Shown one piece after another: positions 7,440 to 55,606 of a DNA stretch of 58,973 nucleotides (positions are counted from its first letter, which is position 1; every line of letters starts with the position of its first letter). A program made the position numbers and the translations under genes. Location of the stretch: assembly GCA_011371305.1 (NCBI GenBank), contig DRQW01000009.1, positions 1 through 58,973 of the forward strand, given 5' to 3'. Source of the DNA: Anaerolineae bacterium (GTDB taxonomy: Bacteria; Chloroflexota; Anaerolineae; J102). The notes under the pieces were generated by a model that was not told the DNA's origin, did not search any database, and worked only from the letters and a program-made list of their open reading frames with translations.

Positions 7440-8513
7440 TCATCCTGATGTTGAACCGCAATGGAGAAAGTGGGCTTCCGCGTCCTCTTTCGGTAGATGC
7501 GCGGCCACAGCCTCGGCGATGAGCCGCAGATTGCGCAGTTCTGCGTCTTTGGCCGCGAGGTAGCCGATGAGGATGCCGGGACCCAAAGGATCTGCGGTGT
7601 AGAAAAGCTTCATACGCCAGCACAACAACGCTTGCTCCCAGGCCAGTTGCAGGTCCCGAGCGTCGAGGCCATCCCACGCGGTTAGCGCGGGCAGCCAGAA
7701 CGCGGCCGCGGGCTCGCGGGCCAGCGCATCGGTCATGGCCTCGGGGTCGGATGCAGTGCGGAAGGCCTCCAGCAGGTCGGGGGTGAGCTCGCCGCCGGGT
7801 AGGTAGTCGGGCGGGCTCTCCAGGGCGATGGTCTGGAAGTCCAGTGCCAGGAGCAGGTTGCGCAGGTCGATGGCTCGCCCCAGGTTAAGGCGCAGCAGGC
7901 GGCCTTCGTCGCCCGGAATGGCATCCACGGCCGCGCGGGTGGTTTCGGCCCAGGCTCGGTCGAAACGCCGCTCCAAAAATGTGGGGTCCACGGACTGACG
8001 CAGGGCCTCGGTGAGGGACCGAGCCAAGTCGGGCGTAGGCAGGCCCCATTGGTCCAGCAAGTGCACCAGGGCGCGGACTGTACTGCGACGGGCGAGTTCG
8101 TTGAGCACGCCTTCGGTGAAAGGAGGCAAGATGAACAATAGGGGAAGAAGCTCGGTGGCGGGCGTGTGGGAGCTGACGCCCCGTAGCAGTGTGATGATGT
8201 TGTGTCGAATGTAGGGCGCGGTGAGAAGCCGAAAGACGCGGGCAGTTTCGCCGCCGCAGAAGCCCGCGATACGCTGCAAGATCGCGTGATGGTCCAGTTG
8301 CAAGGCCCGGTGGATAATCCCGACGCCGGTATGGGTGACCGTGGCCTGTTTCAACGCCTCCTGATAGGGGGTTTGGTCCAGCGCACCGATGAGCGCGGGG
8401 ATGTCGGGCGCGGCCAGCAGGCGGTCCAGATCGGCGCGAGTCAGCAACCGGGAGCGCATGACGCGCAGCCGGGCGTTGATATACTCGTAGCCGAGGTCGA
8501 TGGTCGCGGGCAT
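7440..8513 (-). CDS. atpC: A/V-type ATP synthase subunit C (V0 d-like)
   Basis: 357 aa: MPATIDLGYEYINARLRVMRSRLLTRADLDRLL.... Helical protein between the E and F genes. Confidence 0.85.
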   Translation of the reverse strand: MPATIDLGYEYINARLRVMRSRLLTRADLDRLLAAPDIPALIGALDQTPYQEALKQATVTHTGVGIIHRALQLDHHAILQRIAGFCGGETARVFRLLTAPYIRHNIITLLRGVSSHTPATELLPLLFILPPFTEGVLNELARRSTVRALVHLLDQWGLPTPDLARSLTEALRQSVDPTFLERRFDRAWAETTRAAVDAIPGDEGRLLRLNLGRAIDLRNLLLALDFQTIALESPPDYLPGGELTPDLLEAFRTASDPEAMTDALAREPAAAFWLPALTAWDGLDARDLQLAWEQALLCWRMKLFYTADPLGPGILIGYLAAKDAELRNLRLIAEAVAAHLPKEDAEAHFLHCGSTSG

Positions 8514-8580
8514 GGTGGTTGGAACTGTATTGACCTGGTTTGTAAAAAGTTCTCAAAAGGAGCATTGGGCGAGACGGCAA

Positions 8581-8650
8581 CTTACGTAATTCGTGATGAT
8601 ACGTGAGATCTTACGCATCACGCATCACGTTTCACGCGTCCGCGTCTTTT
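8581..8650 (-). repeat. Heptamer array of the RCGTGAW / TTACGCA type
   Basis: Plus strand: CTTACGTAATTCGTGATGATACGTGAGATCTTACGCATCACGCATCACGTTTCACGCGTC. On the coding strand GCGTGAA ACGTGAT GCGTGAT gives TGA in three phases, and the first one is the subunit E stop. Confidence 0.75.
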
Positions 8651-9234
8651 GCATCGCCGATTTTCAGCAAACTCGCCAAAAGGGGACGGAGGTCGGGCTC
8701 GGCCCGCTCCAGGCGGCTTTCCAGAGTGTTTAAGGTAATGATGCGGTCGTCCGGGCAGTGGACTTCAACCCCGCCCCAGGTGGTCAATCCACCCGCTAAA
8801 GGTGCATCCCGCCCCAATTCCGCGAGGACACCGCGAGCTAGGGCTAGGTCCTCATCCGCGACATGGATGATCGCGCCGGGTTCATGCGCGGCCAGGGCTT
8901 CTCGGAGCAAGGCAGCAAAGATAGCGGGATAATCGTCGCGCGCGCGGGTTTGGGCCAGGAGGGCCCGGGCCTGTTGCAACGCGGCCTGGAACGCGGTTTC
9001 CTGCACCGCTACCAGTTTCCTCATTCGCGCCAGTCGGGCGCGGTGCAACAACCGTGCCCGTTCCTGTTCTGCTTCTGCTTCGGCCTTGGCCAGAATTTGG
9101 GCGCGTAAGGCGTCGGCCTGCCGGCGGGCCTCGGACAATCGGGTCTCGCGGCGCGTTTGGGCTTCTTCCAGAATAGCCCGGACTTGTTGCTCCGCGTCGT
9201 CAGCAATGGCCTTCAGAATGTGTTGGAGGGACAT
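8632..9234 (-). CDS. atpE: A/V-type ATP synthase subunit E
   Basis: 200 aa: MSLQHILKAIADDAEQQVRAILEEAQTRRETRLSEARRQADALRAQ.... Long N-terminal coiled coil plus a globular C-terminus. Confidence 0.85.
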   Translation of the reverse strand: MSLQHILKAIADDAEQQVRAILEEAQTRRETRLSEARRQADALRAQILAKAEAEAEQERARLLHRARLARMRKLVAVQETAFQAALQQARALLAQTRARDDYPAIFAALLREALAAHEPGAIIHVADEDLALARGVLAELGRDAPLAGGLTTWGGVEVHCPDDRIITLNTLESRLERAEPDLRPLLASLLKIGDAKDADA

Positions 9235-9288: not shown

Positions 9289-9513
9289 TTATCCTCCCGG
9301 CAGAAGCAGCATGATCATGGCCGCGACGGCGAAGCCGAGGATGACCATGGTTTCGGGGATAGCAACCAGGAGGATGATGCGACCTGTGATTTCGGGCTTC
9401 TCCGCGATGGCACCTGCGCCAGCCGCGCCGATGCGGCCCTGGGCGTAGCCGGTGCCGAATGCGGTGAAGCCCACGGCCAGGCCCGCGCCGATGGCGATGA
9501 GTCCGAGTTCCAT
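9289..9513 (-). CDS. atpK: A/V-type ATP synthase subunit K (c/proteolipid, single hairpin)
   Basis: 74 aa: MELGLIAIGAGLAVGFTAFGTGYAQGRIGAAGAGAIAEKPEITGRIILLVAIPETMVILGFAVAAMIMLLLPGG. Two TM helices with the carboxylate in the PET motif. Confidence 0.9.
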   Translation of the reverse strand: MELGLIAIGAGLAVGFTAFGTGYAQGRIGAAGAGAIAEKPEITGRIILLVAIPETMVILGFAVAAMIMLLLPGG

Positions 9514-9698
9514 AGGACTGTCTCCTTTTGGAGAGGATTGTGTGACGTAACTGCGAATGTCATTTGGTCAAAAAACTCTTTTGCCACGAATGCACGAAGG
9601 ACATGAAGACACCAACTCATTGATTTTTATTTTTGTCCGTGTCCCTTCGTCTCCGTGTTGAGAAAATTGGAGCTACATTGACGGTTGGATGGGACACA

Positions 9699-11600
9699 TC
9701 ACGCATTATTTTCGGCAGACGCGCCGAAAGGGTGGAAGGACTGCCCGCCTTCTTCGTAAAATTTTGTGAAGAATTCGACATAATGGAGGCGCAGGGCGTG
9801 GATGGAGGGACTGAACGCGCCCATGGCTAGGTTCAAGGTGTGGAAGAGGATGGCGATAAGGACGCCCAGCCAGATGACGCCCATCTTGCCTGCCATGAGG
9901 TTACCCACCAGGGCCAGGTAGACCGATGCCAGGCCAATGGCGGCCAGGCGCAGGTAGGAAAGCACATTGCCCAGCACGCCCAGGAGTTCCACAGGAGCCA
10001 AGAGCGCGCCCACAGAGCCCAGGCCGTAGAGGAGCATGGCCAGGCCCACGATGACAGCAGCCAGGGCCGGGGACATCCACCCGCGAGGAATTTGTTGGGC
10101 GATGATGCCGACCAACAGGAAGAGACCGATGAGTCCCACCAGCTTCCCCGCTCGCTCCCACAATTCATGTTGTTGACGTAGATGCCATGCCTGCCATATC
10201 CCCAGCACCAATCCCAGCACGATGTGCACGGCTCCCAGGGCGATAGTGAACAGAAGCAGGGAGGCCAGTGCGCCGGGCTCGCTACGTTCTCTCCACAGGG
10301 GATGCAGGCCGAAGAGGTGATATCCCAAATCGCCAAAGAACTCGCCGAAAACGAAACCCCAGGCAATGGTCCACAAGGAGCCGATGAGGAGAAAGGTCAT
10401 CAGATCGCGCAGGCCACTGCCGGAGGGGAGGTGGCGTCGGACCAGGAGGACGATGATGAGAAGGGTGAGGCCGTAGCCGATGTCGCCCAGCATGAGCCCG
10501 AAAAAGAGGGGCATGAACAGGGCCATGAGCGCGGTGGGATCGATGGTTCCGTAGCGGGGCAGTGAGAGAAGACGAATGAAGAAGTGGAAGGGGCGGGTGA
10601 GGCGATTGCCTTGAAGCAGCACCGGCGCGTCTCGGGTTTCCTCAGCCGTGGGTGGCAGTTCCTCGATAACCAGCGCTTTGGGGAGGCGGTCCTCCAGGTG
10701 TTGTCGTAAGGTTTCCAGGTGGTCACGAGGTATCCAACCTACCAGCACGAATGCATGCCGGGTTTCGCCCAGCTGTTTGCGCACCTGCAACTGCTCAAGC
10801 CGCTGGCTCAACGTCCGGGCCGCGCCTAGCCAGCGCGCCCGATATCTCCGCGCGGCCTCATGAAGCTGGGCATCGATGGTTTCCAACTCGCGGGGGATCT
10901 CCTCCAGTCGCTGATGGATATGAGCTAATGCATCCTGAAAGGGGACATGTTGCAGTGATTCGGGCAGGGCGATGGGGGTAACTTGCATCCGGCCCAGGAG
11001 TGCATTCATTTTGGGTGCGACCTCGCGCGGGAATACGAGAATCGCTCCGATATGGTCTGGGTCCACTTGATCCCAAACGAGTTCAGTATATGGTCCGGCA
11101 ATGGCCTGCATCTCTTCGGCCAGCATATCCATAAGCCCAACGGCTCGCCGGTCCAGCAACACAGCGACGGTCTCGTACTCGCGCAACTGGGTCAATTCGG
11201 GCGTCAGGCGCATGAGCTTGCTGAGGGTGGCCGCATAACTGGGCAGCACGTCCGCGTCGTTGATGAGTTGTTGGCGCTCTCGAGCCAGGGCTTCCAGATC
11301 GCTCGCGTATGCGTCCAGTTCCGCCTGGATGCGGGGAATGAGGTCTTCTTCGGGCCAGGGTTCAGGTATCTCGTCGGGTAGAGGAGGCAATAGAGCCAGT
11401 AAAGCCTCCAACCTGGACCGAAGATAGGCCAGTATCTCCATCTCCTGCTGTTCCATGATGGCCGCGTAACGGTGCAGGCCAGGATGAACCTGGGCAGCAT
11501 CAATCAGTTGCACACACGCCAGGCGTTGCAGTTCTCGCAAAGTTGCGTCCAGGTCACGCTTATGGCCGACGATCTGAACGCGGGTCATGGGAGTGATCAT
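9699..11600 (-). CDS. atpI: A/V-type ATP synthase subunit I (a-like stator)
   Basis: 633 aa with an N-terminal soluble coiled-coil half and a C-terminal multi-TM half (..LRLAAIGLASVYLA.. / ..HALRLHYVEFFTKFYEG). Confidence 0.9.
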   Translation of the reverse strand: MITPMTRVQIVGHKRDLDATLRELQRLACVQLIDAAQVHPGLHRYAAIMEQQEMEILAYLRSRLEALLALLPPLPDEIPEPWPEEDLIPRIQAELDAYASDLEALARERQQLINDADVLPSYAATLSKLMRLTPELTQLREYETVAVLLDRRAVGLMDMLAEEMQAIAGPYTELVWDQVDPDHIGAILVFPREVAPKMNALLGRMQVTPIALPESLQHVPFQDALAHIHQRLEEIPRELETIDAQLHEAARRYRARWLGAARTLSQRLEQLQVRKQLGETRHAFVLVGWIPRDHLETLRQHLEDRLPKALVIEELPPTAEETRDAPVLLQGNRLTRPFHFFIRLLSLPRYGTIDPTALMALFMPLFFGLMLGDIGYGLTLLIIVLLVRRHLPSGSGLRDLMTFLLIGSLWTIAWGFVFGEFFGDLGYHLFGLHPLWRERSEPGALASLLLFTIALGAVHIVLGLVLGIWQAWHLRQQHELWERAGKLVGLIGLFLLVGIIAQQIPRGWMSPALAAVIVGLAMLLYGLGSVGALLAPVELLGVLGNVLSYLRLAAIGLASVYLALVGNLMAGKMGVIWLGVLIAILFHTLNLAMGAFSPSIHALRLHYVEFFTKFYEEGGQSFHPFGASAENNA

Positions 11601-11640
11601 GACAGGTGTTGTCTCAACACGGATGGAAGAACATGAATAC

Positions 11641-11745
11641 TGTTCCGCAAGTAGCGTTGTTTCATCTGCAAAATCAGCTTCAAGCCCACGTTAGGCGAAG
11701 CGCTAACGAGCGTGAAACGTGAGGACTTACGCATAACACATGAGA
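11641..11745 (+). repeat. Dispersed repeat family, copy A (inside the V-ATPase operon, between the G/H-like and I genes)
   Basis: ..AAAATCAGCTTCAAGCCCACGTTAGGCGAAGCGCTAACGAGCGTGAAACGTGAGGACTTACGCAT.. aligns to the copies at 26684-26855 (inverted), 50485-50600 and 57198-57358. Confidence 0.8.
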
Positions 11746-11746
11746 A

Positions 11747-12097
11747 CTATTCGTTTTGCGCTTCTGGCGAGTTGACATGCGCTTGATTGGGAAGGATGTA
11801 AGCTACGATGCGGGCCGCGGCCTCATCCACCCGCTGAATTAAGTGGTCGCGCAGGTGGTTAGCTTGGGCATCGGCCTGCTTGCGCAGAGCATGGGCTTCT
11901 TCCAGTGCTTGAGCGATGCGATGGCGTTTGAGGGCTTCGGCTTCGGCCAGGGCGTCGCGTTCTGCTTGAACGAGGAGCTTTGCCACTTCTTGTTCGGTTT
12001 TTTCGTCCAGGCTGCGAGCCTGTTGTTGTGCATCCGCAATCCGAGCTTCGGCTTGGCGCTCGGCATCACGGAGTTGAATGAGGATGTCGGTTGGCAT
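11747..12097 (-). CDS. A/V-type ATP synthase small coiled-coil subunit (G/H-like peripheral stalk)
   Basis: 116 aa: MPTDILIQLRDAERQAEARIADAQQQARSLDEKTEQEVAKLLVQAERDAL.... Position immediately before subunit I, as in Thermus-type operons. Confidence 0.7.
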   Translation of the reverse strand: MPTDILIQLRDAERQAEARIADAQQQARSLDEKTEQEVAKLLVQAERDALAEAEALKRHRIAQALEEAHALRKQADAQANHLRDHLIQRVDEAAARIVAYILPNQAHVNSPEAQNE

Positions 12098-12123
12098 GAT
12101 TGATTTCTGCGCGTAGTCATAGA

Positions 12124-12789
12124 CTATGGAGTAAATGACTGCTTAAATTTCGCCCGGTGTGCTCGGCCATGTCGGGCCTTGACCATCTTCAACCGATAAA
12201 TATCTTCCCGTTCGCGTTCGGCCAAACGTAATTCAATGAGCTTTAGCTGTTGTTGCAGTTTTGGCAGTAGGATGTATTCCAATGCATTGACACGGCGGAT
12301 GGTCTCGCGAATGGCTTCGGCCAGACGACGGAGCCGTAATTCATGATTGGCCAAATCCAGCAAAGCTTCGAGTTCAGCTTCAAAAGCTAGGGCGACTGCG
12401 TCCAAACGGGGCGCGCTGTGGGTAGGGCTATGGGGACGATCGCTGGCCGTGCGCACCAGGGCTTTTGGTGCAATGCGCAGGACATGGACGCCCATCACGC
12501 GAGTGGAACCAATTTCCACAGAGATAGGCTTCTGAGCAGCCAGGGCCGCGCTACCGATGGTTTCAGGGCCATCGTGGGCCAGGGCTAGAGCCAATGCACG
12601 ACGCGCGGCCGCGGCCGCCTCGTCCAATGCTTGTTCTTCGGAGAGAACTTCATCCGCGCTGCGGCGTAATTCCTCAATGAGGGCATTGCGTTTCTGTTGC
12701 AACAAGTCACGACCCTTTTTCACCAATTCGATCTGGGCGCGCTTCCGATTCAATTCCGAACGGGTCGGTGTGACTTGCTCAGCGACCAT
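12124..12789 (-). CDS. atpD: A/V-type ATP synthase subunit D (central stalk)
   Basis: 221 aa: MVAEQVTPTRSELNRKRAQIELVKKGRDLLQQKRNALIEELRR.... Classic subunit D N-terminus. Confidence 0.9.
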   Translation of the reverse strand: MVAEQVTPTRSELNRKRAQIELVKKGRDLLQQKRNALIEELRRSADEVLSEEQALDEAAAAARRALALALAHDGPETIGSAALAAQKPISVEIGSTRVMGVHVLRIAPKALVRTASDRPHSPTHSAPRLDAVALAFEAELEALLDLANHELRLRRLAEAIRETIRRVNALEYILLPKLQQQLKLIELRLAEREREDIYRLKMVKARHGRAHRAKFKQSFTP

Positions 12790-13041: not shown

Positions 13042-13070
13042 TTGCCGTTGTCTGTTAAGTGGCATAGAAT
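13042..13070 (+). promoter_or_regulatory. Sigma-70-like promoter (TTGCCG-17 nt-TAGAAT) for the TolB-like gene
   Basis: Hexamers at 13042-13047 and 13065-13070, about 40 nt upstream of ATG 13110. Confidence 0.5.
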
Positions 13071-13109
13071 AGTAACCGTCGCTCCATCTCCGAGCGTAGG
13101 AGTTCACCC

Positions 13110-14483
13110 ATGTCGATGCCCTCTTCCGGGAATGCACAGGAGCCAAAGTCGTCCAAAGCCCCTGGCCTGATCATTTTTTTCCTCCTCTTCGTCATCTTGG
13201 TCGGTGGCATTGCACTAATCGAGCATCTGACGCCAGTGAAACCTATTACTGGGGCCCTGGCTGCGGTTGGTCTACGGAAGGATGATACGCCCACATCGGC
13301 GCCTGTGGCCGTGGCTACACGCGTGCCCACCTTTACACCCACTTCTATCCCCCCCGAAGCGGTGCTGCTCCCAACAACCACACCCGTTCCCACACCGATA
13401 CCGTCACCTACACCCACATTGCTACCCACGTCTACCTTCACACCCACTTCTACACCGACCAACACCCCGACACCAACCCCCACGCCGACCGTCACGCCTG
13501 ATGTGCAGGCTACAATCCAGGCCCGGCAACAGGCGACACGTGCAGCCAGTGCCACTGCCCGAGCTCGGGCCACAGCTACCGCCCGGGCCAAACCTGCCAG
13601 AAAAAAGCCGCGAGCTACCCTCCGGCCGGCCATCCCCCCTCTCTCCGGAAGCATCGCATTCCCCGTCTTCGATCCTCGACGGGGCATGTATGACATCTAC
13701 GTCGCCAAGGTGGATGGCTCGGACATGCGAATGGTGATTAGCGAAGCCAGCCAGCCCAGTTGGCGCAAAGATGGTCAGCTTCTGGCTTTTCGTAGTTGGA
13801 AGCACGATGCGCGGGGGTTGGCTATGCTATCTTTTTTGGATGGTCAGACCCAGCGATTTTCCACCTATCTGGAAGACATTTTGCCGCGATGGTCGCCGGA
13901 TGGTGGGGATATCATCTTTTTCTCACGGCGGGAGGCCGATCGCAAGCCCCGGATCTACCGATATAGCGTCCACGGGCGGAATGAGATGGTCTTAAGAGAT
14001 GGTTTGCAGGTGGTGTTCGGAGAATACCCTGCCTGGATGCCCGATGGGCACATTGTGTACCGCCAGGTGTTTCCTCAAGTTGGGCTGGCGATCATGGATG
14101 GCTTCGGTGCGGGCGGGCGCTTGATCCTGGCGGATGAAAGCGCCATCGCACCCATACCCTCCCCGAATGGCCGATACATCGTGTTCATGTCTCAACGTGA
14201 TGGCAATTGGGAGCTCTATCGCATCAATGCGGATGGTTCGGGATTGCGTCGGCTAACGAAAAATGGGGCAAATGATGGGTTGCCCGTGTGGACGGGCGAT
14301 GGAAGCACTATCCTTTTTGTCTCGGATCGTGATGGGGAGTGGGGGGTGTATGCCATGTTCGCGGATGGTAGCCGTCAGCGTCGACTCTTTTTCTTACCAG
14401 GCCCCCTTGACGGCCGGGTTGCTGGTGAGCCTGAGTTCGTCTCGCGCGGGTGGGTGGAAGAAAGCATTTCTTGGATTCCATAA
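13110..14483 (+). CDS. Membrane-anchored TolB-like (PD40/WD40-like) beta-propeller protein with a Pro/Thr-rich linker
   Basis: N-terminal TM (GLIIFFLLFVILVGGIALI), then a PT-rich linker, then repeats such as SWRKDGQLLAF, RWSPDGGDIIFFSRR, PSPNGRYIVFMSQRDGNWELYRINADGSG and WTGDGSTILFVSDRDGEWGVY. Confidence 0.8.
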   Translation: MSMPSSGNAQEPKSSKAPGLIIFFLLFVILVGGIALIEHLTPVKPITGALAAVGLRKDDTPTSAPVAVATRVPTFTPTSIPPEAVLLPTTTPVPTPIPSPTPTLLPTSTFTPTSTPTNTPTPTPTPTVTPDVQATIQARQQATRAASATARARATATARAKPARKKPRATLRPAIPPLSGSIAFPVFDPRRGMYDIYVAKVDGSDMRMVISEASQPSWRKDGQLLAFRSWKHDARGLAMLSFLDGQTQRFSTYLEDILPRWSPDGGDIIFFSRREADRKPRIYRYSVHGRNEMVLRDGLQVVFGEYPAWMPDGHIVYRQVFPQVGLAIMDGFGAGGRLILADESAIAPIPSPNGRYIVFMSQRDGNWELYRINADGSGLRRLTKNGANDGLPVWTGDGSTILFVSDRDGEWGVYAMFADGSRQRRLFFLPGPLDGRVAGEPEFVSRGWVEESISWIP

Positions 14484-16901: not shown

Positions 16902-18533
16902 ATGAGTGTTCTTTGGTCCTCTCCGCTTGGCCCGATGGGTTTGCTACTTGGCGGCGGTGGTTGCTTGCTGCTTGTCCAGAAGTATCTTTCACCGCGTTGG
17001 CGGCAGAGGCTGCCTTTGGGCTTGATGCTAGTGGCGATGGTTGCCTGGCTGGTGATGCGTTGGTTCCCAGGCACTATCGGGCGTTGGTGGTTGTGGCAGG
17101 CGCCTTTGGGTCTGGAAACTGCGCTGGGATTGCAATGGGATGGTTGGGCCTGGCTGGCTGGCTGGTTGGTTTTTATAGCGGGGGTGGCTGCCCTTTCCTT
17201 GCCCACATGGGGATGTCGGCCCGGTTTTGTTTCCCCCCGTTTCTGGACACCTTTTCTCACCGCGGCAGCCTTGTTGGTGTTAACCTCAGCTACCTGGACG
17301 ACATTGCTGGTGGGATGGGCTTTGCTCTTGTTTTCGACAGGGATGTTGGCCGGTACGCCTTCCTCCGCTGCACCTCGGGCCTGGACCTTCTTGCTGGCGG
17401 CTGGCTTGTTTTTGTGGCTGGCACCTTTGTTCAATGGCCTGGGGGCTTTGGATGTGGTCCTGAGCACATCTCCCCTAAATTTACAGGCTCAACTTCTGCT
17501 GAGCCTGGCTGTAGTCATTGTCGCGGGCATTTATCCTTTCCATAGCTGGCTTGCATCCCATCCGCCGCGCGCTTCGGGGTCCCAATTGGTGTTGCATACC
17601 ATCCCTGCATTGGTCGCCTTCCATCTGATCAGCCGGTTTCAGGTTCCATTGCTTGAAAGCTTTAGCTGGATCGCGCTGGCTATCACCGGGTTGTTAGGGA
17701 GTGCCATGGCCGCCTGGGCCACGGACGATGACCATCGGGCCTGGGTCTATGTGGCCATTAACCGGGCCACGTGGGCTATGCTGGTCATATCCCTTTCTCG
17801 GGCACATGGCGCTTATCGTGGATTATTTCCACTAGCAGCATTAGGCATCGGCCTCGTGATTTGGGGGCTGGCCCCTCGATTGGAAAGGCCCTGGTTACGA
17901 TGGTTGACACTGTTTTTCCTGATGGGCTTCCCCTTGACGCCCGGTTTTCTCCCCAACCTCGATGTCTCGCAACTCGCTACCTCGGTGCGGGGATTCCCCC
18001 TCTGGATGCTGGTCTTATTGTCGCAAACGCTGATCGTAGCAACGATCTTGCGCCCTGACATGTTCGTTTCTCATCCAGCCGTCGCAAAAGCATCCCCGAA
18101 CAAAGAGGGAGATTTTCTTCCCCGAGGACTGCGGGTGTGGCTATTGGTTCTTGCCATCGCGTTTGGTTTATGGTGGGGGGTTTTCCCAGCTGCGTTGACG
18201 ACCACCGCAGGGCTGACCCCTCAGGGGGTGTTGGCCAGCGCCTGGGCGCAAATGCGCGCGGCCGGATTACTCACCGGTTGGATTACGTTGCTATTGCCCA
18301 TGTTGATGGGTGGGTTGCTTGTTCGTTGGCGTGGACGTCTTTTCGCTGGGCAAGAAGCCTGGCTCGCGAAGGCGGCATCCATCGCCAGTTTGGATTGGTT
18401 GATAAGGCTGGCCCGGACAGGTTTGCATTATGCGGCCCTGGTGGTAGGATTTGGCGCCGAGATTTTCGATGGCGCAGGCCAGTTCGGCTGGGTGTTACTC
18501 ATCCTCCTCATCCTTTGGCTGTTCTTCCGATAG
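16902..18533 (+). CDS. Polytopic membrane protein, degenerate NuoL/M/N-MrpA/D (proton-conducting transporter) -like
   Basis: 543 aa with about 14 hydrophobic segments. The motif GIYPFHSWLASHPP resembles the PxHxWLPxA signature of antiporter-like subunits. Only 4 Lys, all lying outside the hydrophobic segments by eye. Start set at ATG 16902. Confidence 0.4.
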   Translation: MSVLWSSPLGPMGLLLGGGGCLLLVQKYLSPRWRQRLPLGLMLVAMVAWLVMRWFPGTIGRWWLWQAPLGLETALGLQWDGWAWLAGWLVFIAGVAALSLPTWGCRPGFVSPRFWTPFLTAAALLVLTSATWTTLLVGWALLLFSTGMLAGTPSSAAPRAWTFLLAAGLFLWLAPLFNGLGALDVVLSTSPLNLQAQLLLSLAVVIVAGIYPFHSWLASHPPRASGSQLVLHTIPALVAFHLISRFQVPLLESFSWIALAITGLLGSAMAAWATDDDHRAWVYVAINRATWAMLVISLSRAHGAYRGLFPLAALGIGLVIWGLAPRLERPWLRWLTLFFLMGFPLTPGFLPNLDVSQLATSVRGFPLWMLVLLSQTLIVATILRPDMFVSHPAVAKASPNKEGDFLPRGLRVWLLVLAIAFGLWWGVFPAALTTTAGLTPQGVLASAWAQMRAAGLLTGWITLLLPMLMGGLLVRWRGRLFAGQEAWLAKAASIASLDWLIRLARTGLHYAALVVGFGAEIFDGAGQFGWVLLILLILWLFFR

Positions 18534-18627
18534 GGTGCCGCATCCACGCTTGCATACTTATCCTTGCCGTGGCAAAGGCCCGAGCATCACATATGGATTC
18601 ATCACCAACTTGAAGATACCCGATCCC

Positions 18628-19284
18628 ATGCTTACACTCGACCAGTTTCTCGCATTGACCCAACGTCTGAATAACCCGGCATTGATTGCGCCCAGCGTGT
18701 TGCTGGTGGCTGCGATGCTGGTATTCAGCGATTGGCGGCTGGCTTTGCTCGCCTTCGCGGGGGTGAAAGTGTTGGCGGGGGTCTTGTTCTTGCAACTCAT
18801 GCCACCGGAATGGGCTTTACAGCAATGGGTGACGGGCGGGATGGTGGCTATCATGTGGTTCATGGCCGCGCGTCGTGTGGACATCATCCGTCGCAAGCAG
18901 ATGGGCGTGGCCTGGTGGAAACCTGAATGGCGACTGAATCCCGCCACCTTATTACGACTGGCTTTTGTGCTTCTGTTGCTGGTGGTCATTTACACGGTGC
19001 GTCCTTATGCTCCTTTTCCCAAACTTCCGGCAGATCTAGCCCGATACGCCACATTCCTGGCTGTGGCCGGGTTGGTGGCATTAGGGTTGGGTGATAGGCC
19101 CATGCGCTGGGGTTTTGGCTTGAGCCTGTGGTTGTTGGCCGCATCGTTCGGCATCCATGTCTTGCAAACCGATGTGGATACGGTGGGTATGATGGCTGGA
19201 ATCGAGCTGTTGTTGGGCTTTGCCATTTCCTATTTCATCATTGTGGATGGGGCACGGTTTTGGCCCAAACCGGAGGAAGCATGA
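18628..19284 (+). CDS. Hypothetical integral membrane protein (about 6 TM)
   Basis: 218 aa: MLTLDQFLALTQRLNNPALIAPSVLLVAAMLVF.... Sits between the two antiporter-like genes, and its stop overlaps the next ATG (ATGA). Confidence 0.55.
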   Translation: MLTLDQFLALTQRLNNPALIAPSVLLVAAMLVFSDWRLALLAFAGVKVLAGVLFLQLMPPEWALQQWVTGGMVAIMWFMAARRVDIIRRKQMGVAWWKPEWRLNPATLLRLAFVLLLLVVIYTVRPYAPFPKLPADLARYATFLAVAGLVALGLGDRPMRWGFGLSLWLLAASFGIHVLQTDVDTVGMMAGIELLLGFAISYFIIVDGARFWPKPEEA

Positions 19285-20675
19285 GCTTGCTGGTTTTTCT
19301 CGTCATCTTACTTATTATCACTGGGCTGGTCGCGGGCCTGTTGCGCGGTTTTGCCTGGCTTTCGGGCGGGCTCGTGGTTGCTTTGTTGGGATGGTTGGCG
19401 GTTTGGATGTGGCGGTTGCCACTGGAGGAAAGCGTGACCGTGTGGGGTCGTGTGATCTTTCTGGAACAGACCAATTCCCTGTTGAAATTTACTTTTCAGC
19501 TTACACCCTTCGCTCGGGTGCCCATTTTGTTGATGTTGGCCTGGGGCGCGCTCTTCGCCCTGATCGCAGCCTTGGTGCAGGTGGAACGTAGCTTTATCCC
19601 CGCGATCCCCTTTTTGCTAGCCGCGCTCGTGGTGTTCCTCGCGGCCCAACCTTTGCTCTATGCACCTTTCTGGCTCATGCTCGTGGCCGTGCTCATGGGG
19701 ATCATCGCCCAGGGGAATAAGCCCCGGCCCGCGCGCGCGGCATTGCGGACGTTATTGGCGCCCTTGCTGGCCTTTCCTCTCTTTTTGTTTTCGGCCTGGG
19801 TTTTCTCGCAATCGGCCGTAGCTGCGGAGGACCCGGTGTTGTGGACGCGCGCTTGGCAGGCGTTGTTGGTGGGAATGCTCATTTTTACCTCGCCGGTCCC
19901 TTTGCATGGATGGATTGTGGCGTTGGGCGAGGCCGCTTCCCCCTTCGCAGGCGCCTTTCTTGTGGGGATATGGCAGATCGCGGTCTATGCGTTTCTGCGT
20001 CGGTTGCTGTTCGCCTATCCTTCCATCACCGATTTCGTCGATCCGGGTGTGTGGCTTCCCTGGATCGCTGTGGTGCAGATGGTGTGGGCGGGCGTGTTCA
20101 TGTTTGGTAGTCAACGATTGGGGCAATTGTGGGGCTACCTATTGTTGTGGATGTTTGGGGCGGGCTTTCTGGCTTGGGGCCTGACAGGCGAGCTGGGAAG
20201 TGAAGCTATCCTGTGGCTGTTTATGGTCGCACCTCTGGTATTGGTTCTGGCTGCCGCAGGATTGCAAAGCATTGTCCATCGTTTTGGTGAAAATCCCGAC
20301 TATTCTCAGCTCCAAGGTGCGACTGACCGCCTGCCTCTTTCCTCGCTGGGATTCATTGCTGGTGGTCTGTTTCTGTTGGGATGGCCGTTGGGTGCACTTT
20401 TTCCCATGCGATTGGCGACATATCAGGTGGCCGAGTATCGGGCAGGGAATATCTTCTTGTGGACCATGTTGGCCGTGGCCTTAGCTGTAATGGGGCTTAT
20501 CCGTGCAGTCCGGTATTTGGCAAGACCAGTGGGGGATGTGTCGTTGCAGCGAGAATCCCGCATCGTTGCGTGGACCATCGGGGGGCTGTTGCTGGTCGGA
20601 GGGGCGATCGCCTTGAATCCGGGGTTGCTCAACGCCGTTGCCGAACAGATGTTGGTGTGGTTCAACATGCTTTGA
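19281..20675 (+). CDS. Polytopic membrane protein, degenerate NuoN/MrpD-like
   Basis: 464 aa. SPVPLHGWIVALGEAASPFAGAFL parallels APFHFWxPDVYEGAPxPVTAFL of NuoN-type subunits, and QRLGQLWGYLLLWMFG parallels the KRLLAYSSI region. Only 2 Lys in the whole protein. Confidence 0.4.
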   Translation: MSLLVFLVILLIITGLVAGLLRGFAWLSGGLVVALLGWLAVWMWRLPLEESVTVWGRVIFLEQTNSLLKFTFQLTPFARVPILLMLAWGALFALIAALVQVERSFIPAIPFLLAALVVFLAAQPLLYAPFWLMLVAVLMGIIAQGNKPRPARAALRTLLAPLLAFPLFLFSAWVFSQSAVAAEDPVLWTRAWQALLVGMLIFTSPVPLHGWIVALGEAASPFAGAFLVGIWQIAVYAFLRRLLFAYPSITDFVDPGVWLPWIAVVQMVWAGVFMFGSQRLGQLWGYLLLWMFGAGFLAWGLTGELGSEAILWLFMVAPLVLVLAAAGLQSIVHRFGENPDYSQLQGATDRLPLSSLGFIAGGLFLLGWPLGALFPMRLATYQVAEYRAGNIFLWTMLAVALAVMGLIRAVRYLARPVGDVSLQRESRIVAWTIGGLLLVGGAIALNPGLLNAVAEQMLVWFNML

Positions 20676-20792
20676 CGGAGCCGGACCAGGGCATGGGGGC
20701 ACTAAACCCGGTTTCTGGAAATGCACTTTGCCCAGCGGGGGAAAAGATAGCTTTTGACAGGATGAATGTGGTATGATGATGTTTAATCAGAG

Positions 20793-20822
20793 GCCCGTCC
20801 AAGCGTTTGGGTGGGCTTTTTT
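20793..20822 (+). terminator. Intrinsic terminator after the membrane-protein operon
   Basis: GCCCGTCCAA-GCGT-TTGGGTGGGC (10 bp including 2 G-U pairs, tetraloop) followed by TTTTTT. Confidence 0.75.
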
Positions 20823-20910
20823 ATGCGAAGTGATGATACGATTCGAGCAATAGTGGCCAGCCGCCACCTCTTTGCCTCATCAATCTCATTGCGTCGAAGA
20901 CGGCTTTCCC

Positions 20911-22083
20911 ATGACCAAATCCTCTCGTCTCCCCGGCTTCTATAAACTCAGCGTCGAAGAACGTCGGCAATTGCTGGCCGAACTGGCCCAGCTCTCCGCT
21001 GAAGACTTGCGCGCCCTGGCGGGCGGCCTCAGTGACGCGGACGCGGATGTGCTGGTGGAGAACGTGATCGGGACGTATGCCCTTCCCTTCGCCATCGCGC
21101 CCAACTTCATTATCGACGGCGAAGAGTTATTCATGCCTCTGGTGATCGAAGAACCCTCGGTGGTGGCGGCTATGGCCCATGCGGCCAAAATTGCCCGCGC
21201 CGGAGGCGGCTTTACCACAGGGAGCACGCCACCGATAATGATCGGCCAGATCCAGTTGCTTGATGTCCCCTATCTTGATGCCGCCATCGTGCGCGTTCAG
21301 GGGCTCAAGCGCGAATTGTTGGCCAAAATCGAACACCTTCATCCGACGATTCGCAAGTTGGGCGGTGGCCCCATGGATCTCCAGGTGCGCAAGTTGGAAG
21401 ACACCCCTGCCGGTCCTATGCTCATCATCCATCTGCTCATGGACACGCGTGACGCCATGGGCGCGAACGCGATCAATACCGCGGTGGAGACCCTGGCCCC
21501 AGAACTAGAAGCCATCACCGAAGGGAGGGCACTTCTCCGCATCCTGACGAACCTGAGCGATCAGCGCCGCGCCTGGGCCAGTTGTCGCATTCCTGTGGGT
21601 GCGCTGGAAACGCCGGAGTTGACGGGCGAGGAAGTAGCCCGGGGAATCTTCGAGGCCAATGCCTTTGCCCTGGCCGATCCTTACCGGGCAGCTACCCACA
21701 ATAAAGGCATTTTCAACGGCATCGACGCAGTGGCCATCGCCACGGGGCAGGATTGGCGGGCCATCGAGGCCGGAGGCCATGCCTGGGCCGCGCGTGAGGG
21801 CCAATACCGGGCGCTCACGGACTGGCGGGTGGAGAACAATCACCTGCTGGGATATCTGGAGATGCCCCTGGCCGTGGGTACGGTAGGCGGATTGACCAAA
21901 TATCACCCTACCGCGCGACTGGCTCTCAAATTGTTGGGCGATCCCGACGCGCGGCGCTTGTCGCAAATCATGGTGGCCGCGGGCCTGGCCCAAAACCTGG
22001 CCGCGCTGCGGGCGTTGGTCACCGAAGGCATCCAGCGCGGGCATATGGCGTTGCATGAAAGAAGATTAAAGATGAAAGATTAA
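20911..22083 (+). CDS. mvaA: Hydroxymethylglutaryl-CoA reductase, class II
   Basis: MTKSSRLPGFYKLSVEERRQLLAEL...VIEEPSVVAAMAHAAK...DAMGANAINT...GHMALH. Class II HMGR hallmarks. Confidence 0.9.
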   Translation: MTKSSRLPGFYKLSVEERRQLLAELAQLSAEDLRALAGGLSDADADVLVENVIGTYALPFAIAPNFIIDGEELFMPLVIEEPSVVAAMAHAAKIARAGGGFTTGSTPPIMIGQIQLLDVPYLDAAIVRVQGLKRELLAKIEHLHPTIRKLGGGPMDLQVRKLEDTPAGPMLIIHLLMDTRDAMGANAINTAVETLAPELEAITEGRALLRILTNLSDQRRAWASCRIPVGALETPELTGEEVARGIFEANAFALADPYRAATHNKGIFNGIDAVAIATGQDWRAIEAGGHAWAAREGQYRALTDWRVENNHLLGYLEMPLAVGTVGGLTKYHPTARLALKLLGDPDARRLSQIMVAAGLAQNLAALRALVTEGIQRGHMALHERRLKMKD

Positions 22084-22166: not shown

Positions 22167-23249
22167 ATGAATCCAAATCCCGAAAGCACCCAAACCATAC
22201 TCCTCCAACCCTCCCGTCCGGTCGGCATCGTCGGCTATGGCGCGTACATTCCCCGTTATCGCTTACCCGCGACCGAGGTCGCTCGTCAATGGACCGGGGG
22301 CGCGGGTGGCGTTCCCATCCAAGAGAAAGCCGTGCCCGGGCTGGACGAGGACACCGCGACCATCGCCATCGAGGCCGCGCGTAACGCGTTGGCCCGCGCG
22401 GGCTTGGCTGGTCGCGACCTGCGGGCCATTTGGGTGGGCAGCGAAAGCCATCCCTATGCGGTCAAGCCCACCTCCACCATTGTGGCCGAGGCTGTTAACG
22501 CGGTGCCCCTGTTGCAGGCAGGTGATTGGGAGTTCGCCTGTAAGGCAGGGACCGAAGCTCTCATCGCCGCGGTGGGCCTGGTGGGCTCCGGAATGGCTGA
22601 TTACGCCATGGGCATTGGCGCAGACACCGCGCAGGGCCGACCGGGAGATGCGCTGGAATACACCGCGGCTGCGGGCGGTGCGGCTCTGATCATCGGCCCG
22701 GCCCACGAGGCCCTGGCCCGCTTCGAAGGCTCCATTTCCTTTGTCACCGACACCCCCGACTTCTGGCGTCGCCCGGGCGTGGAGTATCCCTCTCACGGTA
22801 TGCGTTTCACGGGTGATCCCGCCTATTTCCATCATGTGGTCACCGCGGGCAAGCTGCTCATGGAGGCGATGGGCCGCACCGCGGCCGACTATCGTTATGT
22901 GGTTCTCCATCAACCCAATGTGAAGTTCCCCCAACGCGCGGCCAAGATGTTAGGATTCAAGCCCGATCAGGTGGAAACGGGCCTGCTTTCCGGCATCATT
23001 GGCAATACCTATTCAGGCGCCTCGTTGGTGGGCCTCACCGCGGTGCTGGATGAAGCCCAGCCTGGTGACCGCATTCTCGTAGTTTCCTTTGGATCGGGCG
23101 CGGGCAGCGACGCGATTTCCCTGGAAGTGACCGATAAAATCCATGAACGCCGCCATCTGGCTCCCACAACCCAACAATACATCGACCGGCGGATCGTTAT
23201 CGATTACGCTACCTACCTCCGCTTCCGCGGCAAAATCAAAATGAAGTGA
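22167..23249 (+). CDS. Hydroxymethylglutaryl-CoA synthase, archaeal-type (about 350 aa, thiolase-fold)
   Basis: [42 protein letters not shown]...ACKAGTEAL...[10 protein letters not shown]. Short HMGCS form, adjacent to a thiolase. Confidence 0.85.
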
Positions 23250-23321: not shown

Positions 23322-24485
23322 ATGCGAGACGTTGCAATCGTAGGCATCGGACAAACCAAAGTAGGCGAGCTTTGGGAACAATCGCTGCGCCATCTCGGTC
23401 ATGAGGCTGTGCAGGCAGCCATGCAGGATGCGGGTATCGAGACCGCAGACGCGCTTTATGTGGGGAATATGCTCTCGGGTGAACTCAGCGGCCAGGAGCA
23501 TCTAGCCACCCTGATCGCGGACTTCACGGGGCTGCGGGGGATTGAGGCGGCCAAGATCGAAGCAGCCTGTGCATCGGGCGCGGCCGCGATGCGGGTGGGT
23601 GTGCTGGCTGTGGCCAGCGGCATGATGGACACAGTGATCGTGGCCGGGGTGGAGAAGATGACCGACACCCTACCCGCGGAGACGACCGCGGCCCTGGCGA
23701 TGGCCTCGGACCAGGATTATGAGGCTGCGGAGGGTGCGACCTTTGTGGCCCTCAATGCCATGATCATGCGTCGGTACATGTATGAATTCGGAGTCACCAA
23801 AGCTGATTTCGCTCCCTTCCCCATCATCGCCCACGAAAACGCGCTGGGCAATCCCCACGCGATGTTCCATATGAAGCTCACCCAGGAGCGTTACGAAAAA
23901 TCTCCGGCTGTGGCCCCCCCTATTAACGTCATGGATAGTTCCCCCATCTGCGATGGGGCGGCCGCGGTCGTGCTCATGCCGTATGAGAAAGCCCGGGAGT
24001 TTGGGCATGGCAAACGGCTGGTGCGTGTGGCCGCGTCGGTCTCTGCCACCGATACCCTGGCCGTGCACGACCGTCGTGATCCCTTGTGGCTGGAAGCCGC
24101 GTACATTTCCAGCCACAAGGCCTATACCCTGGCTGGCGTAACGCCCAATGATATTGACTTCTTTGAATTGCATGACGCGTTCAGCATCATGGCTGCGCTT
24201 TCCTTGGAAGCTAGCGGATTCGCGCCCAGGGGTAAGGCACTGGAACTGGCCGCGTCGGGCGCGCTGGCCCGGGATGGTCGCCTGCCTATCAACACGATGG
24301 GGGGGCTTAAGGCCCGCGGTCATCCCGTCGGCGCGACAGGCGTGTATCAGATCGTCGAGGCCGTGATGCAGCTTCGGGGCGAAGCGGGTGCAAATCAGCT
24401 TGCACACGCGCACATCGCCATGACCCAAAATATCGGTGGCTCGGGCGCGACGATCCTCACCCACATTTTGGTTGGGGAAGATTGA
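23322..24485 (+). CDS. Acetyl-CoA acetyltransferase (archaeal/SCP-x-like thiolase)
   Basis: MRDVAIVGIGQTKVGELWEQSLRHL...IEAACASGAAA...GGLKARGHPVGATG. GAGGA precedes ATG 23322. ATG 23307 is the alternative start. Confidence 0.85.
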   Translation: MRDVAIVGIGQTKVGELWEQSLRHLGHEAVQAAMQDAGIETADALYVGNMLSGELSGQEHLATLIADFTGLRGIEAAKIEAACASGAAAMRVGVLAVASGMMDTVIVAGVEKMTDTLPAETTAALAMASDQDYEAAEGATFVALNAMIMRRYMYEFGVTKADFAPFPIIAHENALGNPHAMFHMKLTQERYEKSPAVAPPINVMDSSPICDGAAAVVLMPYEKAREFGHGKRLVRVAASVSATDTLAVHDRRDPLWLEAAYISSHKAYTLAGVTPNDIDFFELHDAFSIMAALSLEASGFAPRGKALELAASGALARDGRLPINTMGGLKARGHPVGATGVYQIVEAVMQLRGEAGANQLAHAHIAMTQNIGGSGATILTHILVGED

Positions 24486-24487
24486 TC

Positions 24488-25510
24488 ATGGCCAGCATGA
24501 TCTTAACCGCGTCGGAGCATCGGTCCGGTCCTCGGCCGTTGGATATCCGCCGTGATCTCGGCCAGGTGGCCGCGCTCATTGAGGAGGCCTTTGGCCCGGA
24601 GCTGGACGCGGCGGGTTGGGCAGCATTGCGCGAGTTACGCCTGACGGCCAGACTGGGGCCGGTGATAGGGTTGCTCGCGGCGCCCGGCCATCGTCCCAAC
24701 GATTTTTTGAATGGATTCGTATGGGAGGAACATGGGAAGATTGTAGGGAATGTGACCATCCAGCGCATTCCCCAATTCCCTACCCGTTTTATCATCGCCA
24801 ATGTTGCGGTGAAGGAGCGTTATCGCGGGCAAGGGATCGCCAGCGAGCTTATGCGTATGGCCTTGGAGTTCATCGCGGAACAGGGTGGCACCTGGGCAGT
24901 GCTCCAGGTGCGCGAGGACAACGAGATTGCTCGTGGCATGTATCAGCGCCTGGGTTTTGCCGAGATTATGGTCGAGCATCGCCTGCGCATCCCGGCCACT
25001 CCCGCGATATCTTTGCCGCCGTTGCCCGCATCGGGGGCGGCGTTGCGCATGCTGACCGACGAAGACTGGCAAGCGATCCGCGCCTTGCTGAGTCGGGCCA
25101 TGCCAGAACGCGCGCGTTGGTGGCTTCCCACGCGTTCCGCAGGGTTTCGACAGAACAGTTCATTCTTTATCCACCGCCAATTAAGTCGTCTGTTGCGTGT
25201 GGGGCACAAAATGCGGTGGGGATTGTTTTTCGGCGATACATTGAAAGGGATCATTGATGCGGAAGTGTTGACTTATAACGAACACCGTATCGATATCCTT
25301 CTCGAACCACAGCTTCGGCAGGCATGGAGCCAGCCCCTATTGGCCCGGGCTATCTACTATCTGGCATCTTATCCCAACCGCCCCGTCAACGCCATCCTGT
25401 TTGACTATCAACAGCCTGCCATCGATGCGTTGGATGCGTTTGGTTTCAAGCCGTTCGTCACGCTGGTGAACATGCGGAAACGGCTGGCAAAACCCGCGTC
25501 GGAACGATGA
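24488..25510 (+). CDS. GNAT family N-acetyltransferase with a ~170-aa C-terminal extension
   Basis: VAVKERYRGQGIASELMRMALEFIAEQGGTWAVLQVREDNEIARGMYQRLGFAE contains the acetyl-CoA binding motif. The start lies 3 nt after the thiolase stop (the TTG at 24482 would overlap it). Confidence 0.75.
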   Translation: MASMILTASEHRSGPRPLDIRRDLGQVAALIEEAFGPELDAAGWAALRELRLTARLGPVIGLLAAPGHRPNDFLNGFVWEEHGKIVGNVTIQRIPQFPTRFIIANVAVKERYRGQGIASELMRMALEFIAEQGGTWAVLQVREDNEIARGMYQRLGFAEIMVEHRLRIPATPAISLPPLPASGAALRMLTDEDWQAIRALLSRAMPERARWWLPTRSAGFRQNSSFFIHRQLSRLLRVGHKMRWGLFFGDTLKGIIDAEVLTYNEHRIDILLEPQLRQAWSQPLLARAIYYLASYPNRPVNAILFDYQQPAIDALDAFGFKPFVTLVNMRKRLAKPASER

Positions 25511-55015: not shown

Positions 55016-55606
55016 ATGGCGATGCCTGCATATGCGGACCTTATTTCGCGTGTTCATTTCGAGAGTGGCGCCCTGGCCCGCTCGCCCGGTCACGTGCGCC
55101 AGCGTTACCCGACGCCCGCGGCAGCTATGAAGGCCACGTTGCACTATCTGCAACCCCTGCCTGAGGCCCTCATCGCACGCTGGTTGGCTGAGGATCGCGG
55201 CCATATTATCATCCAGGCCTCGCAACATGGGTTCGAGTTGGGCAAGTCTCGGTTCCGGAGGAGGTGGCTGGAGGATGTGGCTTGGGTGAGAATAACGCTG
55301 CTGGTGGATGATCCCATTGATTACCTCATGCCCGTGGCCGCACTACTCGTATCTCTCATCGGTTGGGGAAGTACGCCCGATCAAGCAACACAACCCTGGC
55401 AGGATTTTGTGCGTGGTGTACGTTCAAGTTTCGACGCGGGATATGGGCGGCGTGATGAGGCCCGGGCTGATGTGGACGCGTATCTTGCCGAGGGCATCGC
55501 ATGGTATCTGGTCGATCGCCGGGGCCTGAATATTACCAACCCGCGGTTGGAGAAACTCCTCCGGGCCACGGTTTTTAATGAAGCCTGGTGTAGGCGTCTC
55601 TTCTGA
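55016..55606 (+). CDS. Hypothetical protein
   Basis: 196-aa ORF with protein-like composition and no motif I recognise. The internal Met (MKATLHYLQ) is an alternative start. Confidence 0.4.
   Translation: MAMPAYADLISRVHFESGALARSPGHVRQRYPTPAAAMKATLHYLQPLPEALIARWLAEDRGHIIIQASQHGFELGKSRFRRRWLEDVAWVRITLLVDDPIDYLMPVAALLVSLIGWGSTPDQATQPWQDFVRGVRSSFDAGYGRRDEARADVDAYLAEGIAWYLVDRRGLNITNPRLEKLLRATVFNEAWCRRLF

Follow-up and report, generated by a model that had tools for sequence, protein, structure and literature searches.

A three-gene membrane module of Anaerolineae with relay-less antiporter-fold proteins and frequent linkage to upper mevalonate pathway genes

We analyzed three consecutive genes, A, B, and C, in a 58,973-nucleotide stretch of DNA from an Anaerolineae bacterium (GenBank assembly GCA_011371305.1, contig DRQW01000009.1; the whole stretch is referred to as the window). 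The window has the same sequence as a contig from a hydrothermal-vent metagenome that is assigned to an Anaerolineae bacterium. We found that A and C are diverged relatives of the antiporter-like subunits of complex I and Mrp, in which the residues of the proton relay have been replaced throughout both families, and that the membrane protein B matches no known family. The trio is often followed by the gene for 3-hydroxy-3-methylglutaryl-coenzyme A (HMG-CoA) reductase (HMGR). Taken together, we give a probability of about 0.5 to the reading that A, B, and C form an Mrp-derived complex which does not carry out canonical pumping and whose role is tied to isoprenoid precursor synthesis. The three open reading frames (ORFs) are:

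16902..18533, + strand: gene A, 543 amino acids, ORF for a NuoL/MrpA-like antiporter-fold protein without relay residues
18628..19284, + strand: gene B, 218 amino acids, ORF for a seven-helix membrane protein, family unassigned
19281..20675, + strand: gene C, 464 amino acids, ORF for a NuoN/MrpD/MbhH-like antiporter-fold protein without relay residues

A first-pass annotation, made by reading the sequence of the window, had proposed the same three ORFs, and all of them were recovered intact at these coordinates. Both motifs that it had reported as remnants of the proton-conducting transporter signature, GIYPFHSWLASHPP and SPVPLHGWIVALGEAASPFAGAFL, were found in the translations. The reading frame of gene A is already open from 16737, and one database gene call puts its start 11 codons further downstream than 16902; we keep 16902, since the family-conserved N-terminus MxxLWxxPLGP sits there. 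Genes B and C are joined by an ATGA overlap with a GGAGGA Shine-Dalgarno sequence shortly upstream. A and B are separated by a gap of 94 nucleotides (nt), and translational coupling is therefore limited to B and C, so that the proposed linkage of all three genes holds for the second junction and not for the first. The gene order A-B-C was found in every locus examined.

By sequence comparison, C can be assigned to the NuoN/MrpD/MbhH superfamily. The profile of the C family, built from a 28-member alignment, was searched against PDB and retrieved MbsH (E-value 7e-12), MbhH, mycobacterial NuoN, and MrpD, with E-values ranging to 1e-9. Over almost its entire length, C can be aligned with E. coli NuoN (residues 30-476). 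The Pfam family PF00361 was matched individually by 8 of the 28 relatives, the protein of the window itself being below Pfam detection (no PF00361 match). In some automatic annotations, homologues of C are labelled "MnhD" or "NuoN".

The A family is more divergent than the C family. None of its members match Pfam, the window protein has no direct match in Pfam or NCBIfam, and the A-family profile reaches only ND4 (E-value 3.8e-5). Homology of A to the C family was detected with hhalign (94.6%, E-value 7e-8, 315 columns). The AlphaFold2 (AF2) model of A has a predicted local distance difference test score (pLDDT) of 87.9 and shows breaks at residues 209-224 and 342-348, which match the discontinuous transmembrane helices (TMs) 7 and 12 of the superfamily. 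In Foldseek, this model was matched to NuoL, ND5, NdhF, and MrpA (probability 1.0, E-value of about 1e-11, TM-score up to 0.73), with L-type subunits as the top matches. These data identify A as a paralogue of C that has diverged further and has a predicted NuoL/ND5/MrpA-type fold. At the C-terminus of A, a TM (447-475) and a last TM (526-542) flank an amphipathic helix (498-524) with a hydrophobic moment of 0.42; this tail corresponds to an abbreviated form of the lateral-helix clamp seen in NuoL and MrpA. For A, the model supports a 14-TM fold in which TM7 and TM12 are discontinuous; for C, such a fold is indicated by the alignment with NuoN. Profile matches, the A-C alignment, and the predicted structure all bear out the PF00361-like family assignment, which had previously been made by eye and for which profile and structure searches had been suggested. 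An unrelated identity of A and C as GT-C enzymes or O-antigen polymerases, which had been named as a possible refutation, was rejected, as neither Pfam and NCBIfam nor the fold matches of the A model gave such a hit.

We mapped the relay positions by aligning about 50 orthologues with hmmalign to hidden Markov models of the two families, together with E. coli NuoL, NuoM, and NuoN. The sequences of A, B, and C were taken from 52 GTDB species genomes that had been recovered with the B profile. The following correspondences were obtained:

NuoN E133 (TM5): W/A/L/V in the C family, never acidic; W131 in C of the window
NuoN K217 (TM7): Leu in 48 of 50 C-family sequences; F202 in C of the window
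NuoN K247 (TM8): Gln in 43 of 50 C-family sequences; Q232 in C of the window
NuoN K395 (TM12): Arg (43) or Gln (6) in the C family; R377 in C of the window
NuoN K158 (TM6): Arg, invariant in the C family; R156 in C of the window
NuoN H224 (TM7): His, invariant in the C family; H209 in C of the window
NuoM E144 (TM5): V/A/I/L in the A family; A140 in A of the window
NuoM K234 (TM7): Arg in half of the A family, otherwise Pro or hydrophobic; V207 in A of the window
NuoM K265 (TM8): L/T/V in the A family; L237 in A of the window
NuoM E407 (TM12): R/N/T/H in the A family; N352 in A of the window
NuoM H241 (TM7): His, invariant in the A family; H214 in A of the window
NuoM H322: Arg, invariant in the A family; R288 in A of the window

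At the TM5, TM7, TM8, and TM12 positions, the C family holds no Lys, Glu, or Asp except for a Glu at TM8 in 2 of 50 sequences, and the A family holds hydrophobic or polar residues or Arg. The ionisable relay of TM5 Glu, TM7 Lys, TM8 Lys or His, and TM12 Lys or Glu, which is a hallmark of the superfamily, is found in neither A nor C. The motifs P-x-H-x-W in TM7 and G-x-P in TM12 are kept in both families, and next to the invariant R288 of A, the pair N287-R288 is invariant or nearly so. The canonical Glu/Lys relay is thus lost across the whole of the A and C families, with the fold and the helix-break motifs kept. The absence of the TM7 lysine, which had been described for the two proteins of the window, is therefore one part of a replacement that includes the TM5, TM8, and TM12 positions, and the alternative that A and C are ordinary NuoN/MrpD subunits with their lysines intact did not hold after alignment.

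The low overall lysine content has to be read differently. The earlier counts of four lysines in A and two in C are exact, and B contains five. Across the families, the median Lys content is 0.19% for A, 0.46% for B, and 0.22% for C, and the median Trp content is 5.5%, 4.2%, and 4.3%, respectively. For comparison, soluble proteins of the window contain 2-4% Lys and its other membrane proteins 0.8-1.3%, which weakens global lysine depletion as a special signal. Two GT-C (PMT_2) glycosyltransferases of the window (33018-35399 and 55578-57020, both on the + strand) have 3.2-4.0% Trp and 0.8-2.1% Lys; enzymes of this type use polyprenyl-phosphate-linked sugars as substrates. Gene A, with 6.6% Trp, exceeds these proteins and follows the same trend. 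Since the PMT_2 proteins are also Trp-rich and Lys-poor, the composition of A, B, and C is in part a genome-wide trait of membrane proteins. Of the lysine depletion that had been put forward as a signal, the family-wide loss at the relay positions stands, whereas the global poverty is partly compositional in a Lys-poor genome.

For B, seven helices are predicted, and its AF2 model has a pLDDT of 86. Comparison of the model with PDB folds gave no significant match (best Foldseek E-value 0.27), a search of PDB sequences with the B-family profile gave none either, no Pfam family is assigned, and hhalign showed no relation to NuoK, NuoJ, or C. Two candidate identities were rejected. The single weak NCBIfam match of B in the window (NF009286, DUF4040/MrpA, E-value 0.017) would make it a degenerate MrpA C-terminal domain or MrpB; this match recurs in 2 of 25 members, has no fold support, and was judged to be due to chance. 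A relationship to NuoJ or NuoK was supported by none of profile search, Foldseek, and hhalign. Wzy_C, which would point to the O-antigen polymerases, was matched by 1 of 25 members (E-value 0.0027), and fold support is absent. The family comprises 272 representative clusters among 1.84 billion proteins. D35-W36-R37, P59, W62, R110, and Y202 do not vary among 54 orthologues, 52 of which also have E61. The conserved charges D35, R37, E61, and R110 are located at helix ends in the AF2 model and not in the middle of the membrane. B is also the best conserved of the three proteins, as its closest homologue shares 91% identity compared to 80% for C and 73% for A. B represents a new, conserved membrane protein family without annotation or structural relatives.

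A natural fusion of B and C was found in the protein P0245 (576 amino acids; locus L059, 8001-9731, on metagenome contig Ga0645779_01062). Its C-terminal part matches the C family (hhalign 98.9%), although the C-like domain is shortened. The fusion speaks for B and C acting in direct contact with each other, and the ATGA overlap also points to their physical association. The C part of P0245 has another residue in place of the TM7 His (FPAYLW). At the same locus, a gene for an A-like protein of 545 amino acids precedes the fusion gene and a methyltransferase gene follows it; a gene for a membrane H+-pyrophosphatase is nearby.

Intact trios were found in 52 GTDB species, all of them Anaerolineae in the broad sense. 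In comparison with the closest genome, the ratio of nonsynonymous to synonymous substitution rates (dN/dS) is 0.05 for B and 0.09 for C. As these ratios are low and the trios intact, the genes are functional, under strong purifying selection, and show no decay.

In the window, the trio is followed on the same strand by three genes of the upper mevalonate pathway, including that for HMG-CoA synthase (HMGS):

20911..22083, + strand: HMGR (PF00368), conserved downstream neighbour
22167..23249, + strand: HMGS (PF08541), conserved downstream neighbour
23322..24485, + strand: acetoacetyl-CoA thiolase (PF00108/PF02803), conserved downstream neighbour

We examined this arrangement in 46 Anaerolineae loci with enough downstream sequence. 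HMGR lies directly after the trio on the same strand in 35 of them, followed by HMGS and then thiolase wherever the contig is long enough; in one further locus, two of the genes lie divergently upstream of the trio. The order of trio and HMGR is kept both in the Caldilineales-like clade of the window and in an Anaerolineales-like clade, between which B shares about 30% and HMGR about 55% identity, and the trio-mevalonate order is also present in the independent metagenome contigs L001-L003 and L060. In contrast, the genes upstream of the trio vary in nearly every locus, and RmlC is found there in just 3 of 52 GTDB loci. The kept downstream and variable upstream neighbours therefore provide an internal control against simple inherited synteny. 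The spacer between C and HMGR measures 66-130 nt in many loci. A hairpin with a T-run is present in 16 of 31 such spacers, and about half of the spacers have no hairpin at all; those that are short (<130 nt) and hairpin-free look typical of an operon. The description of the three genes as a stand-alone operon was thus misleading. The accompanying statement that Nuo, Mrp, Hyf/Mbh, and DabA partner genes are missing next to the trio proved correct, since the neighbours carry unrelated Pfam domains; a survey of more than 55 loci revealed none of the genes for Nuo, Mrp small-subunit, hydrogenase, or DabA proteins within 10 kb of a trio.

The spacer downstream of C in the window contains two elements:

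20745..20780, + strand: conserved non-coding block with TTGACA at 20754-20759 and an extended -10-like TGGTATGAT at 20769-20777
20789..20822, + strand: intrinsic-terminator-like hairpin with a 14-bp stem, a GCGU loop, and T6 (-18.4 kcal/mol)

About 80 nt of this spacer (20745-20830) are almost invariant in the window and in the loci L004, L007, and L008, and the flanking spacer is not. The conserved block is laid out as TTTTGACAG, 10 nt, GTGGTATGAT, about 12 nt, and the hairpin with T6. TTGACA and TGGTATGAT are spaced by just 12 nt, and a promoter scanner made no call. The hairpin corresponds to the terminator that had been noted after gene C; it was not reported by a consensus terminator scanner and was found by reading and confirmed by folding. 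A search of the whole window against Rfam, including this spacer, revealed no known RNA element. The promoter-like element and the hairpin could represent a terminator overlapped by a promoter, a leader that attenuates the mevalonate operon, or a tiny RNA.

Several further features of the neighbourhood were observed. In both the window and L004, the thiolase gene is followed by a gene for a 340-amino-acid GNAT acetyltransferase (24488-25510 in the window, + strand). This gene is found again in several Anaerolineales loci (L002, L033, L039-L043), lying 2-5 kb downstream and on the other strand, and may be part of an extended conserved neighbourhood. In L001 (15334-15741) and L002 (17927-18154), the thiolase gene is instead followed by a DUF35 (zf-ChsH2/OB_ChsH2_C) gene, the position of which is taken by the GNAT gene in the window; none was noticed elsewhere in the window, although no search was aimed at DUF35. 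The archaeal thiolase/HMGS/DUF35 complex is a known parallel to this gene order. Upstream of the trio, at a distance of about 4 kb, the window carries genes of a V/A-type ATPase (c subunit, subunit I, and subunit D; about 9289-12789, - strand). A link of the trio to these genes was rejected, since the neighbourhood is not conserved in other loci. Between these genes and the trio, at 13110-14483 (+ strand), lies a gene for a Tricorn_N/PD40-repeat protein with a Pro/Thr-rich low-complexity linker (residues ~70-140); long antisense ORFs over this gene (e.g., 13055-13696) look like repeat artefacts.

Among the known systems closest to the trio is the MrpA/MrpD pair of the Mrp Na+/H+ antiporter. 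Both have two paralogous antiporter-fold subunits in one operon and the gene order of a large L-type subunit, small protein(s), and a D-type subunit. The A model is similar to MrpA (7qru_A, E-value 3e-10, TM-score 0.66), the C-family profile matches MrpD (7d3u_D, E-value 1e-9), and the tail of A with its TM, amphipathic helix, and TM is like that of MrpA and NuoL. However, the trio has no homologues of MrpB, C, E, F, or G, A lacks the C-terminal domain of MrpA, B is unrelated to the Mrp small subunits, the Glu/Lys relay is absent, and the trio is linked to mevalonate genes. NuoL/M/N and ND5/ND4/ND2 of complex I have a 14-TM fold, breaks in TM7 and TM12, and the motifs P-x-H-x-W and G-x-P in common with A and C, but neither a Q-module nor NuoH/A/J/K is encoded adjacent to the trio, and E133/K217/K247/K395 are changed to W/F/Q/R in C and E144/K234/K265/E407 to A/V/L/N in A. 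MbsH of the archaeal sulfane reductase and MbhH of the archaeal membrane-bound hydrogenase (6u8y_H, 6cfw_H) are the best matches of the C profile (E-values of 7e-12 and 4e-10). They are parts of redox complexes with 13-14 subunits, whereas hydrogenase and Mrp-type small-subunit genes are not near the trio. The DabB/DabA (MpsA/MpsB) inorganic-carbon pump is similar in that a PF00361-type protein is used for a purpose other than respiration and is encoded in a small operon together with a partner that is not respiratory either. It differs in consisting of one antiporter-like subunit and the soluble carbonic-anhydrase-like DabA (PF10070); DabB keeps the relay residues, and PF10070 (DUF2309, DabA) was not found in any annotated trio neighbourhood. 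A full-text literature search revealed no description of the trio or of a link between antiporter-like proteins and the mevalonate pathway. Together with the missing partner genes, this agrees with the earlier remark that the arrangement matches no characterised system.

Based on these data, we propose that A, B, and C would form one heteromeric inner-membrane complex descended from an MrpA/MrpD (NuoL/NuoN) antiporter module. A would represent the MrpA/NuoL-type subunit, whose amphipathic helix and last TM probably clamp the MrpD-type subunit C, and B would probably be positioned beyond C, in the place that the small subunits take up in Mrp, resulting in a putative A-C-B arrangement. Such a complex would keep the fold and have its Glu/Lys proton chain exchanged for hydrophobic residues, Gln, or permanently charged Arg. 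As the relay is replaced, it would most likely not function as a canonical redox- or proton motive force-coupled pump or antiporter. The presence of HMGR-HMGS-thiolase downstream in about three quarters of the genomes, compared to the variable upstream genes, suggests that its role is most likely tied to isoprenoid precursor synthesis. We are highly confident of the structural and evolutionary part of this proposal. The loss of canonical pumping appears probable, and a real functional tie of the trio to the mevalonate pathway is put forward tentatively, at slightly less than even odds. Any specific biochemical activity is a guess and unlikely to be correct as stated. The role that we favour is that of a platform or sensor in the membrane serving thiolase, HMGS, and HMGR, the soluble enzymes of the upper mevalonate pathway; alternatively, the complex might handle an anionic isoprenoid-related ligand by means of B and the conserved Arg, His, and Gln residues.

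A number of observations weigh against this proposal. Unrelated genes (ZnuA, a restriction-modification system, Opp, or Lon) come after the trio in 10 of the 46 loci, three of which, L010, L011, and L013, are from close relatives, and the mevalonate link is therefore not obligatory. In the clade of the window, co-transcription of C and HMGR appears doubtful due to the terminator-like hairpin between them, which is kept in close relatives. As all genomes belong to one class, the synteny could partly be inherited rather than selected. No recognisable docking domain is present in either the trio or the mevalonate enzymes, and the conserved His, Gln, and Arg residues together with bound water could support some ion conduction. 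At L011, the genes after C (7543-9133) encode ZnuA as well as an N6_N4 methylase and an EcoO109I-like endonuclease, which make up a type II restriction-modification pair, and a UbiA prenyltransferase gene is located further downstream on the opposite strand.

Alternatively, the function of the trio could lie outside isoprenoid metabolism, for example in the envelope or membrane architecture of these filamentous bacteria, and its adjacency to the mevalonate genes would then reflect inherited ancestral order and carry no functional meaning. This alternative, which we regard as unlikely but worth keeping in mind, is consistent with trios that stay intact where the linkage is broken, with distant trios (L059, L062) that have no HMGR neighbour, with the terminator-like hairpin in about half of the spacers, and with the restriction of all genomes to a single class; on the other hand, inherited order fits poorly with a downstream arrangement that persists in 35 of 46 loci between lineages as divergent as those described above, with upstream neighbours that were not kept along with it, and with the many operon-typical spacers.

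It is also conceivable, although somewhat less probable still, that the trio remains an ion translocator, i.e. a minimal Mrp-like cation/proton antiporter, a passive channel, or an anion transporter with fixed Arg residues. In the first two cases, a non-canonical relay would consist of H209/H214, Q232, water chains, and the B charges D35, R37, E61, and R110. The fold and the discontinuous helices are kept, as this would require, and the TM7 His, R156, R377, and Q232 of C as well as N287-R288 of A are invariant or nearly so and located at or near the canonical axis. However, the TM5 Glu/TM7 Lys pair has given way to Trp, Ala, Val, and Leu, which are unable to carry protons, and Arg is effectively never deprotonated and cannot shuttle them. 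The small-subunit region of Mrp is thought to hold the cation path, and B does have four conserved charges (three invariant, and E61 in 52 of 54 orthologues). Yet in the model they are located at helix ends, and B is unlike MrpB/C, NuoJ/K, or any solved transporter. That the trio is the membrane arm of a larger complex-I-, Mbh/Mbx-, or Dab-like machine with further subunits encoded elsewhere is very improbable: all characterised PF00361 proteins act within larger assemblies and by sequence C matches MbsH and MbhH best, but no homologue of NuoH/B/C/D, hydrogenase, MrpB-G, or DabA lies within 10 kb in more than 55 loci, and without relay residues the trio would be unable to transmit a redox-driven charge wave.

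Overall, we consider it a long shot that the complex I/Mrp antiporter fold has been recruited in Anaerolineae as a non-pumping device that controls or organises isoprenoid precursor synthesis. If this is true, the complex proposed here might act as a sensor of membrane composition or as a scaffold for a thiolase/HMGS/HMGR metabolon, with B as a new kind of subunit, and would constitute a functional counterpart in bacteria to the sterol-sensing membrane domain by which HMG-CoA reductase is governed in eukaryotes. To our knowledge, every studied member of the antiporter-like family (NuoL/M/N, MrpA/D, MbhH, NdhD/F, and DabB) is understood by means of its Lys/Glu proton relay. A relay-less lineage in at least 52 species therefore provides a natural experiment on what else this fold does and on which of its parts are structural or catalytic. 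In addition, we know of no step in the bacterial mevalonate pathway, or point of its control, that is associated with the membrane, and the linkage to HMGR, HMGS, and thiolase offers a testable lead to one.

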